Origin: Candidatus Magasanikiibacteriota bacterium
GTDB lineage: Bacteria > Patescibacteriota > Patescibacteriia > Magasanikbacterales > UBA10003
Direction: 5' to 3'
NCBI GenBank assembly: GCA_035400705.1
Contig: DAOMZV010000001.1
Span: 1-57,471, forward strand
Length of the DNA: 57,471 nt
Of the stretch, positions 4,033 to 57,471 are shown piece by piece. Numbering within the stretch: position 1 is the stretch's first letter; each line of letters opens with the position of its first letter. Both the position numbers and the translations under genes were made by a program. Under the pieces are notes generated by a model. That model saw only the letters and a list, made by a program, of their open reading frames with translations, did not search any database and was not told the DNA's origin.

Positions 4033-4103
4033 AAAAAAAACCGGCAATCTTACGATCAGCGTTGGCTGACTTTCAGATTGCCGGTTGATCTCGTTGCGAG
4101 ATC
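4033..4103 (-). terminator. double-hairpin intrinsic terminator of the high-GC gene
   Basis: Minus strand: a 7-bp hairpin gatctcg-caa-cgagatc (4087-4103), then a 12-bp stem aaccggcaatct/agattgccggtt (4039-4050 with 4075-4086) containing an inner tcagc/gctga hairpin, followed by T8 (4033-4040). Confidence 0.75.
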
Positions 4104-4152
4104 ATGGTGGGGTTATTAGAGATTAGCACTGGGGATCGTGGAGCAGAACGGA

Positions 4153-5556
4153 TTACGCCGCGTTCTTTCCCTTCTTGGGCTGGGGCTGGCCGCGACGAGT
4201 GTCGCCGCCACCGCCCTTGCCCTTGTGGGCCTCGCGGAAGGCGCGATCCGCCTCCCGCTTGGCCGCCTTCGCCTGTTCGACAGCGGCCGGATCCATCTTG
4301 GCCCGCGTCCGTTCGGTCTTGCCCGTGTGGCGGATGACCGGACGGGCGGCGGAGTCGAAGGTCTTCTGCTGCTGGATCTGGCGCGGCGGATGGGCCGCCA
4401 GCCAGTCCTTGTGTGTCAGCGCGCAGCGGAGCTGGGCGATTACCGCCCTGCGAACCAATTCAGATTCGCCAGCGGCCTTGGCTTCCGCAACAGCGGCCTG
4501 GGCTTCGGCGATGAAATTGTCCAGGTCGGCGGAACCGACGGCGGAGAACTGCTCACGCAGCCTCCCAACATAGGCGAACCTGGCCTTTTCGGTGTACTCC
4601 TCGTACACCTGGGCCGTGATCCGTTCCTGCCAGCCTTCCACGGTCTGGCCAGCTTCGGCCTTGGCGTTCAGGAACCTGTCCATGGCGCGAGCCAGGGACA
4701 CATGATCCCAGACCTGCGATCCGTCGGCGTACGCCGCAGATTCGGACAGGATCGTGGTCACTTCAGCGATCAGCGCGTCCTGCGCCGCCTGCCGCTGAGC
4801 GGCCTCGGCTTCGCGTTCGGCGAGCCACCTCTGGGTTTCATCCCAGTGATGGAACCTTTCGGCCTTGCCGAGCAGCTTCCTGAGGCGGTTGGCCACCACC
4901 TCCTCACAGACGAAACAGAGGCGGAGGACTTTTGCCTCCGTCGCCGGGATCATCTTCCCGGTGAACATCGACTTCACGAAAACAGCACCGTCGATGTCCT
5001 TTTCCAGCGCCTTGACATCGGAAACGCGCTGAAAGTACCCGTTCGGCTGCGTCTGGATAAAGGACAGGGCGACAGCATCGTCGACCGGAATCCCGGCGCC
5101 GACGAGAACTTCCGGGTGCGCCAGTTCGTAGGCGCGGATCCGGGCCGCTTCGGCCTTGGCTTCGGCGTCGGCCTTGGCTTCGGCGTCGGCCTTGGCTTCG
5201 GCCGCGTCACTGTCGATCTTGGCCTGGATCAGTTCGAGAATCCTCGGGCCACGCGTTCCCATTTCTTCCAGCCCGACCACGAGGTCGGACTGGTCATCTT
5301 CCGTGAGAGAAAAGAACTTCTGAACGATTTCCGAGTCGGACAGGAGTCCGACCGTTTCGATCTTCAGAGCTACCGAGTCCGCATCAAGACCCAGCGCCAT
5401 TTTCAGGCGCCGGAATTCGTTTCCGGCCTTCTTGACCGCCGCGCGGAAACGCGCCTTGGCCAAGATCCCCTCGACCTCGACGGCGGCCACGGCCGCGTCG
5501 ATTTCGCTGTCGAGCATTTCCGCGAGATTCGAGAAAAACTTGTTAATCATGTCCAT
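4153..5556 (-). CDS. hypothetical protein of unknown family: Ala/Glu/Lys-rich, (AEAKAD)n repeat, basic Gly/Lys/Arg C-terminal tail
   Basis: Open frame of 467 codons, very unlikely by chance at this GC, with GC-rich third codon positions. GGAGG lies 8 nt upstream of the ATG at 5554-5556; the track's TTG at 5571 would overlap that SD. Has its own promoter and terminator. I recognise no catalytic or family motif. Confidence 0.75.
   Translation of the reverse strand: MDMINKFFSNLAEMLDSEIDAAVAAVEVEGILAKARFRAAVKKAGNEFRRLKMALGLDADSVALKIETVGLLSDSEIVQKFFSLTEDDQSDLVVGLEEMGTRGPRILELIQAKIDSDAAEAKADAEAKADAEAKAEAARIRAYELAHPEVLVGAGIPVDDAVALSFIQTQPNGYFQRVSDVKALEKDIDGAVFVKSMFTGKMIPATEAKVLRLCFVCEEVVANRLRKLLGKAERFHHWDETQRWLAEREAEAAQRQAAQDALIAEVTTILSESAAYADGSQVWDHVSLARAMDRFLNAKAEAGQTVEGWQERITAQVYEEYTEKARFAYVGRLREQFSAVGSADLDNFIAEAQAAVAEAKAAGESELVRRAVIAQLRCALTHKDWLAAHPPRQIQQQKTFDSAARPVIRHTGKTERTRAKMDPAAVEQAKAAKREADRAFREAHKGKGGGGDTRRGQPQPKKGKNAA
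5152..5205 (-). repeat. 18-bp in-frame tandem repeat (about 3 copies) encoding AEAKAD/AEAKAE
   Basis: ggccttggcttcggcgtc occurs at 5152-5169 and 5170-5187, with a diverged third copy from 5188. Confidence 0.85.
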
Positions 5557-5732
5557 TTCCAGTACCTCCAAAATGGCCCCAAGGGGGCCTTCCCTAATAG
5601 CTTTGAGCAGGAACCCTCCCGCCCAACCGGTAAAAACGGCTTAGCTAAGTCATCTTTACCGGCAGGACGAAACTTCCCGCCTTATTTAAGGAACAACCTT
5701 GTTTAAAGGGTTTGATCTATTTCGGACCAGAA
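5557..5732 (-). promoter_or_regulatory. structured 5' leader of about 175 nt with a terminator-like hairpin just before the RBS
   Basis: Minus strand: hairpins ggcggga-agtttcg-tcctgcc and ccggtaaa-N20-tttaccgg (with an internal palindrome cttagctaag), then ggcccc-ctt-ggggcc followed by AUUUUGGAGG. Confidence 0.5.
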
Positions 5733-5877: not shown

Positions 5878-5953
5878 GGCCCGGTAGCTCAGCTGGTAGA
5901 GCAACAGCCTTTTAAGCTGATGGTCCTGGGTTCGATCCCCAGCCGGGTCACCA
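5878..5953 (+). tRNA. tRNA-Lys (anticodon UUU), CCA encoded
   Basis: A 76-nt cloverleaf folded by hand: acceptor GGCCCGG/CCGGGTC, D arm GCTC-AGCTGGTA-GAGC, anticodon loop CTTTTAA, T arm CTGGG-TTCGATC-CCCAG, 3' ACCA. Confidence 0.9.
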
Positions 5954-54842: not shown

Positions 54843-55373
54843 TTATTCAATACAACAGTCAACAGCTCTTTTTACCAAATTACCAAGTTTTGTCATAAAA
54901 CCACCTTTCTTTTTATCTTCTTTATCCAACTGATCATCATCAATTTTTTTTATTTCACCCAAATCTACCATTTTCATATTCAAACCCCAAAACAAAGAAT
55001 AAAGTTGAAAAGATTTCTCAAACAAATCTTTGGCTTCGGCCTTATCGCCTCGTCCCTGAGCTTTAGTCCCAACCTCCATCAAACGCATACTAGCTGCTAA
55101 TAAATGTTTGGAAATACACCACACTTCACCCTCGTATTGTTTAATCAGTTTTTTTAATAAAGTCTTGCGCATCTCTCGAACCTCCGCTAAAAAATCAAAG
55201 TACTCATTTTTACCAGTCTTCGCTCCAGTAAAAAAGAAATGTTCCTCAATACTAATTAAATTCATGATAGCAATACTCAAATCCTGATCAGACGACAAAT
55301 CCATCTTATCTTGTTTTTTTAAATTATCAACTTTTTCTACTAACTCCTGATAGTCTTTTAATTGATTGGGCAT
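54843..55373 (-). CDS. hypothetical protein
   Basis: 176 aa, helical and charged, ending in CCIE. No recognisable motif. Confidence 0.5.
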   Translation of the reverse strand: MPNQLKDYQELVEKVDNLKKQDKMDLSSDQDLSIAIMNLISIEEHFFFTGAKTGKNEYFDFLAEVREMRKTLLKKLIKQYEGEVWCISKHLLAASMRLMEVGTKAQGRGDKAEAKDLFEKSFQLYSLFWGLNMKMVDLGEIKKIDDDQLDKEDKKKGGFMTKLGNLVKRAVDCCIE

Positions 55374-55375
55374 AG

Positions 55376-55876
55376 CTACTTAGTTAAAAAATAAAAAATT
55401 AGACTTAAAATTACTAAAGTTCCGATTGGAAAAACAACTCGCTGAAAAGAAAAAAATGATTTATTCTCATGATTTTTTTTAAGTTGCGAATGTATTAATC
55501 CAGCTAAAAGAAAAAATAAACTACCAAAAATAATTCCTAACAATAATTTATCAATCCCCCATAATTTATTAAAAGGATGACCCATGATCCCCATCCAATA
55601 AAAAGGTACTACCATCAAACCATAAAATAAAAAAGTAACTAAAATTTTTCTGCCTCTAAATTTTATTTTTTTGCTATTTAACCAATTAATGGTCCAGCCA
55701 ATTAACGATGCAGTCAATCCTCCTACCCATAATCCTGATATAGTATCATCTATTCCCAACCAACGCGATAAACCCAAACCCGCCCCCACGGCCACCGTGC
55801 ACACCGGACAAAAAGCTTTCGCTACCACAGGAAAAGCCAGAAAAAAACTGGGAATTAAAAAGAGAGATTTTTTCAT
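55376..55876 (-). CDS. integral membrane protein with an N-terminal CPVC motif
   Basis: Signal-like N-terminus, then AFCPVCTVAVGAG and about 4 TM helices. Confidence 0.5.
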   Translation of the reverse strand: MKKSLFLIPSFFLAFPVVAKAFCPVCTVAVGAGLGLSRWLGIDDTISGLWVGGLTASLIGWTINWLNSKKIKFRGRKILVTFLFYGLMVVPFYWMGIMGHPFNKLWGIDKLLLGIIFGSLFFLLAGLIHSQLKKNHENKSFFSFQRVVFPIGTLVILSLIFYFLTK

Positions 55877-55887
55877 AACTTAAAAAT

Positions 55888-56250
55888 CTATTTTATTTTA
55901 TCTTGAAAAAACTGAATAATATCGATATCGCCAACCAAACACTGAGAACCATCCCATAAAAAAGGTACACCTAAACTAGAAACCGGCAAACCACACGCCC
56001 CAGCCTTTTCGGCCATTAAAGCAGCATTATTTTTATCTTTATAAACTTCTAAAATAATAAAATTAAATTTTTCTTGCACTTTATTCGTTGTGGCAAATTC
56101 TTCCACCTTGTCGCAATGAGGACAATTATAACCCACAAATAAAATAGGGCCTTGAGTTTCTGCTACTAGACCGCTGGTTTTTTTGGAACAACCAGCGCCA
56201 GCCAAAAATAAGGGTAAAAATAAACCTAAAATAAAAAATTTACTGCGCAT
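55888..56250 (-). CDS. thioredoxin-fold lipoprotein with a DsbA-type CPHC active site
   Basis: Lipobox LFLAGAGC, FVGYNCPHCDKVEEF, and a downstream GVPFL (cis-Pro-like) motif. Confidence 0.6.
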   Translation of the reverse strand: MRSKFFILGLFLPLFLAGAGCSKKTSGLVAETQGPILFVGYNCPHCDKVEEFATTNKVQEKFNFIILEVYKDKNNAALMAEKAGACGLPVSSLGVPFLWDGSQCLVGDIDIIQFFQDKIK

Positions 56251-56304: not shown

Positions 56305-57003
56305 TTATCTTATTTCACACTTCTCAACCCACTGTTCACAGGCCTTGGCTAGGCTAGTTAATTCTTCATCAGAAATACTTTTACGTCCTACAAATTCTGA
56401 ATTAACTAAATTATCTCTAGAAATAAACTTCTGTAAAACATATTTTTTGGCCCCCTCAACCATTTGAGCCATAGCTAAAATGTCTGCTGGTTCGTGTAAG
56501 CCTTCCACAATAGTAGTTCTAAATTCATAATCTTCTGGTCCAGTTTTAACCAAATCAATACTCTTTTCAATTTCAGATAAATCAAAAGTTTTATCAACTG
56601 TTAAAAAATATTTTGGAAAGGAATTTTTAATATCCATCGCCCAAAAATCCACCAACCCCTTCTGCCGTAAGTCACTAATCATTTGACTATTAGTTCCATT
56701 AGTATCTAATTTGATTAAAAAACCCAAATCTTTAACTTGCTGCAAAAATTTTGCCAAATCTTGATGCAAAGTTGGTTCGCCACCAGTTACCACTAATCCC
56801 TCTAACAAACCTTGGCGTTCCTTTAAAAAATTTAACACGGCTTCTTCTGTCCATTGGTTATTTAAATCTCTTTTTTCCGAGTGAACCAACTCTGGATTAT
56901 GGCAAAAACCGCAACGGAAATTACACCCAAAAGTAAAAATAGTCGCTGCGACTTTACCCGGATAATCCAAGAGGGTAATTTTTTGTATTCCACTAATAAT
57001 CAT
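56305..57003 (-). CDS. nrdG: anaerobic ribonucleoside-triphosphate reductase activating protein (radical SAM)
   Basis: DYPGKVAATIFTFGCNFRCGFCHNPEL, VVTGGEPTL, in an nrdD context. Confidence 0.85.
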   Translation of the reverse strand: MIISGIQKITLLDYPGKVAATIFTFGCNFRCGFCHNPELVHSEKRDLNNQWTEEAVLNFLKERQGLLEGLVVTGGEPTLHQDLAKFLQQVKDLGFLIKLDTNGTNSQMISDLRQKGLVDFWAMDIKNSFPKYFLTVDKTFDLSEIEKSIDLVKTGPEDYEFRTTIVEGLHEPADILAMAQMVEGAKKYVLQKFISRDNLVNSEFVGRKSISDEELTSLAKACEQWVEKCEIR

Positions 57004-57052
57004 AAAAAATTAGATAAAGAAGGCCCCAATTAAGGGGCCCCCATTAAAACTT

Positions 57053-57214
57053 TTAGCAACCGCAATCAGTTACTTGCTTGTCGTATTCTTGACGATCGTA
57101 ATACTCAGCTTGCTTGCCCTTATTCCATTGAGAAACGGGGCGTAAATAACCGACCACACGAGAGTAGACTTCGCATGGCTGTCTCCTCTGGGATAAATCG
57201 TTATTGTTCTCCAT
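57053..57214 (-). CDS. stand-alone glycyl-radical tail of class III ribonucleotide reductase (53 aa)
   Basis: Hand translation gives MENNNDLSQRRQPCEVYSRVVGYLRPVSQWNKGKQAEYYDRQEYDKQVTDCGC. It contains the NrdD C-terminal signature V.SR..GY.RP...WN.GK..E...R. It sits in a different frame from the upstream nrdD body, 5 nt after that body's stop. Confidence 0.6.
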   Translation of the reverse strand: MENNNDLSQRRQPCEVYSRVVGYLRPVSQWNKGKQAEYYDRQEYDKQVTDCGC

Positions 57215-57219
57215 ATATT

Positions 57220-57471
57220 TTAATTAATTAAAGTTTTTTGTTTTTTAGATACCGCTTCGGTATAACCGATTTCATCATCGCACTTAGGACAGAACTGGTG
57301 TTCACCAGCTAAATAACCATGTTTAGGACAAACACTAAAGGTCGGAGTTAAAGTGTAATATGGTAAATGAAAATTTTCCGCAATTTTCTTAACTAATTGT
57401 TTTGTGGCGTCAGCATTGGGTAACATTTCTCCAATAAAACCATGCAATACAGTTCCACCGGTATATCTAGT
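57220..57471 (-). CDS. nrdD: anaerobic ribonucleoside-triphosphate reductase NrdD, C-terminal part of the main body (N-terminus beyond the window)
   Basis: The frame is open to the window edge: TRYTGGTVLHGFIGE...LPYYTLTPTFSVCPKHGYLAGEHQFCPKC (zinc-ribbon region), ending ...KQKTLIN* before the glycyl-radical motif. Confidence 0.75.
   Translation of the reverse strand, partial: TRYTGGTVLHGFIGEMLPNADATKQLVKKIAENFHLPYYTLTPTFSVCPKHGYLAGEHQFCPKCDDEIGYTEAVSKKQKTLIN

Follow-up and report, generated by a model that had tools for sequence, protein, structure and literature searches.

The window considered here is the whole 57,471-nucleotide (nt) stretch of contig DAOMZV010000001.1 from an uncultured, ultra-small Candidatus Magasanikiibacteriota bacterium (assembly GCA_035400705.1). 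The subject of this report is the locus, at its far end, of the class III ribonucleotide reductase (RNR), an oxygen-sensitive enzyme of DNA precursor synthesis; the NrdD body, a short protein with the glycyl-radical loop and the activase NrdG are encoded there one behind the other. In canonical class III enzymes the glycine loop is the C-terminus of NrdD itself, whereas here it belongs to a separate product of 53 amino acids (aa), called the tail below. A sequence-only reading of the window had placed the end of the body at 57220 and a 53-codon open reading frame (ORF) 5 nt downstream of it in another frame, and this layout was confirmed. The features of the locus are as follows.

57220-57471, minus strand: 3' end of the nrdD body gene, 83 codons and a TAA stop, from translation; the gene continues past the window edge
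57280-57330, minus strand: zinc-ribbon segment C-P-K-H-x9-C-P-K-C, read directly in the sequence and belonging to the body
57262-57279, minus strand: D-D-E-I-G-Y, first part of a clade-specific linker behind the zinc ribbon, from the C-termini of 115 bodies
57215-57231, minus strand: junction, made of TTAATTAATTAA, which contains the body stop, and the 5-nt spacer AATAT
57053-57214, minus strand: gene of the putative small glycyl-radical subunit (the tail), 53 aa, ATG start and TAA stop, from the ORF list and Pfam
57092-57184, minus strand: conserved core of the tail, R11-R41, RQPCEVYSRVVGYLRPVSQWNKGKQAEYYDR, from an alignment of 46 tails
57056-57064, minus strand: Cys-Gly-Cys at the C-terminus of the tail, from the sequence
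57019-57042, minus strand: GC-rich hairpin with a T-rich run behind it, located between tail gene and nrdG, from folding
56305-57003, minus strand: nrdG, radical-SAM activase, 232 aa, from profile matches

The body fragment matches Pfam NRDD (1.6e-19) at profile positions 466-532 of 562 and PRK08270 with 110 bits, and its C-terminus reads ...CPKHGYLAGEHQFCPKCDDEIGYTEAVSKKQKTLIN / ...SVCPKHGYLAGEHQFCPKCDDEIGYTEAVSKKQKTLIN before the TAA at 57222-57220. The tail ORF lies in the +2/-1 frame relative to the body, its product is MENNNDLSQRRQPCEVYSRVVGYLRPVSQWNKGKQAEYYDRQEYDKQVTDCGC, and it matches the same Pfam family (8.1e-11) at positions 530-562 of 562. The second match begins on the profile about where the first ends, so that body fragment and tail represent successive stretches of a single family profile. 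The core of the tail aligns with the RITGY / RIVGY glycine loop of solved NrdDs, the predicted radical glycine being G22 (GGT codon at 57151-57149); the tail also contains the peptides DLSQR, QPCEVYSR and VVGYLRPVSQWNK. Between the two ORFs, TTAATTAATTAA (57220-57231) offers a stop in each of the three frames and is followed by AATAT at 57219-57215. The zinc ribbon of the body aligns with the CPxC ribbon of T. maritima 4COI and P. copri 8P23, and its positions vary little or not at all among 58 homologues, in which D683, E685, G687 and Y688 of the linker start are nearly invariant as well. This DDEIGY-type element is kept in the split bodies and in four fused relatives with a long linker, and it forms a short helix in an AlphaFold2 model of a fused relative (predicted local distance difference test score, pLDDT, ~80). 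The nrdG gene had been called intact, which agrees with its 193 bits against TIGR02495 (NrdG2; cutoff 131) over a 232-aa product; Pfam Radical_SAM and Fer4_12 match it too.

The full body could be read on contig L001, which belongs to the same species and shows 4 mismatches over the 2743 nt that overlap the window. The whole gene is present on four contigs (L001, L003-L005) and encodes 695 aa with ATP-cone and NRDD domains. The L001 body carries SMCCRLRLDNR and AYCCGWD, both outside the window, and the catalytic motifs CCGW, SMCCRLRLDNR and ANP are invariant among the 58 homologues. In phmmer comparisons the body matches 8P23, 9D3X and 4COI at 1e-30 to 1e-35, and neither in the 695-aa body nor in nrdG were disabling changes found elsewhere. 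The features that mark an NrdD, namely the NRDD barrel, the ATP-cone, the finger-loop and beta-A cysteines, the zinc ribbon and an adjacent activase, are all present; the radical glycine of RVxGY is not in the same polypeptide as the barrel. Compared with the canonical NrdD/NrdG systems (T4 1H7A, T. maritima 4COI/4U3E, P. copri 8P23), the locus shares the ATP-cone, the NRDD barrel and the zinc ribbon, along with the MCCR finger-loop cysteines of the T. maritima type, the RVxGY loop, the WNxGK...E..R helix and an activase of the NrdG2 type.

Position of the break and its distribution among relatives

In ordinary NrdDs, 5-12 residues separate the last zinc-ribbon CPxC from the strand that leads to the glycine. 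For example, many bacteria of the candidate phyla radiation (CPR) have CPKC-TIKQPC-EVYSRVVGY, T. maritima has CPVCG-KAKVD-EYMRIVGY, and P. copri has CPKCGS, 5 residues and LQRITGY. The clade of the window differs in having ~26-30 extra residues between CPKC and the loop, starting with a conserved DxE(I/M)GY. The expectation of about 30 inserted linker residues was thus right with respect to typical NrdDs, although ~20 of them make up a clade-specific linker that fused relatives have too. Four such relatives (71-72% identity) have this linker without a break, CPKCDEEMGYVKGLVPDESRRRCEVFSRIVGY, hence the two ORFs of the window add up to one NrdD. As read from these sequences, the break falls in the variable middle of the ~20-residue linker: the body keeps the zinc ribbon and DxEIGY, and the tail takes the conserved RQxC, the glycine loop and the helix that follows. 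The split probably began as a nonsense mutation in the linker, upstream of an internal methionine, since the tail is still in frame behind a single TAA in two close relatives (L250, L251). An alignment of bodies and tails together in MAFFT placed the EIGY of the body on the VVGY of the tail; the idea that EIGY is a relic glycine loop was dropped, the placement being taken as an alignment artefact.

The split is widespread among the nearest homologues. A word-indexed search with the tail gave 591 matches, and the best 120 of these are all proteins of 43-89 aa, which agree almost fully in the core (KRQPCEVYSRVVGYLRPVSQWNxGKQAEFxDR) and vary at the ends. When 1.84 billion cluster representatives were searched exhaustively with a profile, 5070 matched, and 149 of the best 150 are 42-115 aa long. 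Homologues of the tail in this size range number in the hundreds. The bodies tell the same: among the best 120 body clusters (67-100% identity), 115 end shortly after CPKCDxEIGY without a glycine motif and 5 are fused. In the databases the bodies are named as ordinary reductases (one as "partial"), and the tails are unnamed or go as hypothetical protein, oxidoreductase or reductase. Pfam and NCBIfam hold no dedicated family for stand-alone radical proteins of this kind and give partial NRDD matches only.

The check for the same split in related genomes was also run on one genome per species of the GTDB, which gave 80 loci, ~54 of them with an ordinary fused NrdD. In sixteen of the 80, an intact body in a single frame is followed by a tail ORF of its own and then, in all 16, by nrdG. 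Taxon labels of metagenome-assembled genomes are used as deposited, some of them being doubtful. Five loci with frameshifts elsewhere in nrdD (L015, L028, L081, L085, L089), probable errors or pseudogenes, were left out of the split count. The spacers of the 16 split loci run from -8 (an overlap) to 179 nt, in three frame offsets and behind TAA, TAG and TGA stops. The split is retained across species whose bodies are only 58-70% identical.

A neighbour-joining (distance-based) tree of 59 bodies, which is rough, places the window in a monophyletic split clade with short tails, together with L011-L014, L026, L045, L053 and L074. L040, L066 and L073 form a second split clade, the tails of which are 86-102 aa long and have a zinc ribbon of their own; its sisters are L086, a fused locus, and L058, which has a spare in addition to a fused NrdD. 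Two loci of Anaerolineae (L025, L049) make up a third split clade, and the Micrarchaeota split loci L059 and L080 stand among archaeal fused sequences. By this tree the split seems to have arisen independently at least three times, among CPR bacteria, Anaerolineae and Micrarchaeota.

A cysteine pair (CGC, CxC, CC, CxxC) marks the C-terminal end, or the residues close to it, in 9 of 17 tails of split or spare systems and in no more than 2 of 50 fused NrdD proteins (Fisher p = 2.4e-5, hand tally). The nine are the window, L011, L014, L025, L040, L053, L058, L066 and L073. Such a pair might bind a metal or act as a redox shuttle.

Error, decay or recoding as alternatives

The contig name gives a coverage of 6.8 only, and the matching ENA contig is NODE_284 of ERZ795064 at 6.8x, so that an artefact of sequencing or assembly in a low-coverage metagenome contig has to be weighed. 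However, the identical 53-aa protein is found on 13 contigs from independent samples and assemblers, and the junction is base-for-base identical in all ten contigs in which it was read (Logan, ENA and JGI; different runs, samples and assemblers). The sequence-only reading had pointed to stops in all three frames at the junction; these are present in TTAATTAATTAA, and a single-base error or a simple frameshift cannot join the two ORFs. The chance of an artefact is practically nil. TTAATTAATTAA itself was considered as a special all-frame stop element and rejected: it occurs once against 0.17 expected, 15 of 100 shuffles have at least one, and the window is AT-rich. Similar AT-rich strings are found at the junctions of L013 and L045.

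That reading had left two options, a genuinely two-piece NrdD, which it favoured, and a decaying gene. Decay would account for a stop and a frame change in a gene that is single in most organisms, the short ORF being a remnant. The substitutions contradict it. Between the window species and its close relative L250 (bodies 93% identical), 24 of 53 tail codons differ and 4 residues change; the nonsynonymous rate (dN) of the tail is 0.040 and the synonymous rate (dS) ~2.4, which is saturated, so that dN/dS comes to 0.016, as compared with 0.018 in the body gene. Purifying selection acts on the two genes to the same degree. The tail motifs are unchanged although the bodies have diverged to 58-70% identity, and E15, S18, R19, V21, G22, Y23, P26, W30, N31, K34, E37 and R41 are invariant in 46 tails. 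Likewise, body and nrdG bear no further disabling change, the architecture is common to 115 of the 120 nearest homologue clusters, and the loci that do look damaged (L015, L028, L081, L089) are broken at other, scattered positions. A pseudogene is extremely improbable on this evidence. The split is neither an assembly error nor a pseudogene, and the favoured option was borne out by the ten concordant assemblies, the 115 of 120 clusters, the varying spacer and the purifying selection.

A fused NrdD might still be made by recoding, that is, by stop-codon read-through, programmed frameshifting or ribosomal bypassing. For this speak the close relatives in which the tail is in frame with the body (L250 with a 6-nt spacer and L251 with 12 nt, both behind a single TAA, and L252 with 24 nt, behind TAA TGA) and the A-rich runs (AAAAAACAAAAAAC) upstream of the junction in the window. 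In the window, however, the tail follows a 5-nt spacer in the +2 frame, and no frame stays open through TTAATTAATTAA. Both ORFs are intact in all four, and spacer steps that are not multiples of three with both frames kept are predicted by separate initiation and forbidden by a fused product. The wider comparison argues likewise: among the 16 species the offsets take every value with no conserved slippery site, all 16 tails start at ATG, several have their own GGAG-type ribosome-binding site, and methionine is the first residue in all but one of the best 120 tails. Recoding is hence very improbable as an explanation of the locus.

The bare ATG of the window tail is no obstacle to its translation. 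The missing Shine-Dalgarno motif was considered as an argument against it and discarded, as such a motif is absent upstream of 41 of the 42 long ORFs of the window. The organism appears to initiate translation without Shine-Dalgarno sequences; in such a genome a bare ATG 5 nt behind a stop is normal, and it fits coupling of termination and reinitiation.

No intervening intein, intron or homing endonuclease was found between the halves, the gap measuring 5 nt in the window and never more than 179 nt in the other split loci. Large insertions do occur in other nrdD genes: L069 (945-3944) and L160/L167 (531-3557) have in-frame insertions of ~290-320 aa near residue 280-300, which may be inteins, and the bodies P0130 (846 aa) and P0134 (1009 aa) far exceed the usual length of 695 aa. 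All these insertions lie away from the split point.

Taken together, the evidence, all of it comparative, makes it very likely that the locus encodes a genuine two-gene class III RNR. Some points weigh against this conclusion. The window holds only the last 83 codons of the body, and the remainder was read from the near-identical contig L001. A minor read-through fusion is possible in the three close relatives with an in-frame tail, though it is impossible in the window. Finally, AlphaFold2 models of the fused relative P0144, run with two alignments, give a well modelled body with a glycine loop at pLDDT <50.

Other features of the window

The hairpin between the tail gene and nrdG has 9 pairs, 7 of them GC, with a minimum free energy of -21.7 kcal/mol (z = -2.25). 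It looks like a terminator or attenuator and might lower the expression of the activase relative to the reductase genes. At the same spot L250 has a different sequence which, judged by eye and not by folding, could also form a hairpin. Rfam matches in the window are three tRNAs only.

Three small genes lie 3' of nrdG (54843-56250, minus strand), in an order conserved in L001 and L004-L006. The first encodes a thioredoxin-like protein of 120 aa that has a CPHC motif and an apparent lipoprotein signal sequence, the second a hydrophobic and probably membrane protein of 166 aa, and the third a 176-aa protein without a family match. A DsbA-like gene is found upstream of nrdD.

At the other end of the window, a 1.5-kb island (~4100-5700) of 55-69% GC stands in a genome of ~35% GC and adjoins a tRNA-Lys (5878-5953). 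It contains a 472-aa ORF rich in Ala and Glu (4153-5571, minus strand) and, on the opposite strand, a fully overlapping ORF of 522 aa. The island may be of foreign origin, result from a chimeric assembly or represent an unusual gene.

The proposed enzyme, its known parallels and free-standing radical domains

In the proposed two-gene enzyme, the large subunit of 695 aa would comprise an ATP-cone, a zinc ribbon and the alpha/beta barrel, in which the finger-loop cysteines (SMCCR) lie; the radical glycine would reside on a separately translated 53-aa protein, the gene of which lies 5 nt downstream of the body and ahead of nrdG. The tail would be translated alone, probably coupled to termination of the body gene. 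NrdG would take the C-alpha hydrogen from Gly22 in the RVVGY loop; the loop would then fill the barrel of the body beside the finger-loop cysteine, like the attached domain of an ordinary NrdD, and the docked loop would produce the thiyl radical for reduction of ribonucleoside triphosphates. We infer from the conserved genes that body and tail assemble non-covalently in trans into an active enzyme. Known glycyl radical chemistry offers precedents for these steps. The glycyl radical domain must flip out of the core to reach NrdG and then returns (PMC12662201), and a free glycyl-radical protein acts in trans on pyruvate formate-lyase (PFL) (PMC8683613).

The sequence-only reading had compared the tail with GrcA/YfiD, the spare part of PFL, and this comparison stands as an analogy and fails as a family assignment. 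E. coli GrcA/YfiD and phage T4 Y06I, the autonomous glycyl radical cofactors of PFL, are likewise small stand-alone proteins with only a glycyl-radical loop, activated by the cognate radical-SAM activase and acting in trans on a large catalytic body (PMC8683613), as is presumed here for the tail. The former are homologous to PFL, whereas the tail matches Pfam NRDD and not Gly_radical, all its Pfam and NCBIfam matches being to NrdD models. YfiD has 14.3 kDa and the 53-aa tail an estimated ~6 kDa, less than half. GrcA/YfiD also serves as a replacement beside an enzyme that has its own glycine, whereas the window tail would be obligatory. A spare beside a full-length enzyme with its own glycine is seen only at the two loci L058 and L036; L077 and the viral orphans described below are spare-like as well.

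Divided RNRs are known from other classes. NrdA of phage Aeh1 is split by a homing endonuclease. A class II RNR, NrdJa/NrdJb of Pseudomonas aeruginosa, is also described as split (Crona et al., 2015, PMC4520616). Both share with the present locus an RNR catalytic chain from two adjacent genes with presumably non-covalent assembly, and both differ from it in RNR class and break point; here the small piece would be the radical carrier only, and the 5-nt gap contains no mobile element. The beta subunit of class I RNR is a ferritin-like metalloprotein that works by long-distance radical transfer. The alpha/beta pair resembles the proposed enzyme in keeping the radical on a subunit apart from the catalytic barrel; there is no homology, and here a short peptide loop would be expected inside the barrel. 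A full-text search, with subscription-only papers outside it, turned up neither a split NrdD nor a spare part that serves NrdD. In the searched literature on glycyl radical enzymes the radical glycine is always C-terminal on the catalytic polypeptide and free carriers are described for PFL only; similarly, a 2026 review knows spare parts only for formate lyases (PMC13450708).

Radical domains of the NrdD type also occur outside split operons. Two loci, L058 (44-3396) and L036 (1997-5193), encode in succession a full-length NrdD that has its own glycine loop, an extra 88-94 aa zinc-ribbon radical domain and NrdG, an arrangement which, judging from gene content, is spare-part-like for a class III RNR. 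In Candidatus Pacebacteria (L077, 3447-5084 of CALHEE010000018), a 102-aa protein with zinc ribbon and glycyl-radical loop has no nrdD nearby and sits between a gene of a Fur-family regulator and rubrerythrin and desulfoferrodoxin genes, an oxidative-stress context. L035, L060 and L078 have orphans of 116-120 aa, again with no nrdD nearby. Short proteins in the match lists are in part such orphans and not operon tails; for example, P0104 is the protein of L103.

Viral contigs hold many more. In IMG/VR, 68 of 75 ORFs with the motif are short, and ~70 of 80 viral-contig loci (L091-L249) carry an orphan NrdD-type glycyl-radical peptide of ~43-150 aa, such as L099/L179 (3435-3638) and L109/L189. 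Within 10 kb on either side, an NrdD body is found in 7 of the 80 loci by a hidden Markov model built from 59 bodies, and a clear NrdG in 3. Two of the contigs with an orphan have terminase and portal genes. GenBank phage genomes gave 2 weak tblastn matches only: one is annotated as an anaerobic RNR, and the record of the second carries no annotation. The orphan family is seen only in metagenomic viral contigs. By analogy with T4 Y06I, which serves PFL, the viral orphans may be a phage-encoded radical cofactor for the NrdD of the host.

These proteins bear on why the enzyme would be divided. Oxygen cuts the chain of a glycyl-radical protein at the glycine. In the split enzyme the radical piece could then be exchangeable: a cleaved 53-aa peptide would be replaced by a new one, activated by NrdG and docked again, and the 695-aa body would be kept. 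This extends the two-gene explanation with a selective rationale and is compatible with it. After activation by the PFL activating enzyme, YfiD/GrcA and T4 Y06I do the same for PFL, restoring the cleaved enzyme in trans (PMC8683613, PMC13450708). The free-standing domains beside full-length nrdD and nrdG in L058 and L036, the one in the Fur/rubrerythrin/desulfoferrodoxin cluster of L077 and the ~73 of 80 viral loci with neither nrdD nor nrdG within 10 kb agree with exchange, and the sister relation of L040/L066/L073 to L086 and L058 fits a course from a spare copy to the loss of the fused tail. However, the window body has no glycine of its own and its tail is obligate rather than spare, each operon has a single tail gene, the window operon shows no sign of oxidative stress, and a split could be neutral once assembly in trans works. 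On balance exchange seems possible but rather less than probable for the window. With slightly more confidence, though still tentatively and short of an even chance, the 53-aa ORF may be placed in a large, undescribed family of autonomous NrdD-type radical proteins with a role like that of GrcA/YfiD, the split being built for a replaceable piece. Such a family would occur in three settings: as the obligate subunit of two-piece RNRs that arose repeatedly, as an extra copy, and as an orphan in a stress cluster or in tailed phages. The orphans would re-arm a host NrdD cleaved by oxygen.

If the two-piece NrdD is true, the class III radical loop works as a diffusible subunit of ~6 kDa, and class III comes to resemble class I in having the radical on a separate subunit. 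The tail would then be a natural minimal substrate of NrdG, with which the access of the activase to the buried glycine and the re-docking of the loop are directly testable. Annotation is affected as well, since split bodies are labelled as ordinary reductases and their tails are mostly unnamed or hypothetical. The orphans of phages and stress clusters suggest a strategy of repair or takeover for the supply of deoxyribonucleoside triphosphates under transient oxygen in hard-to-culture organisms.

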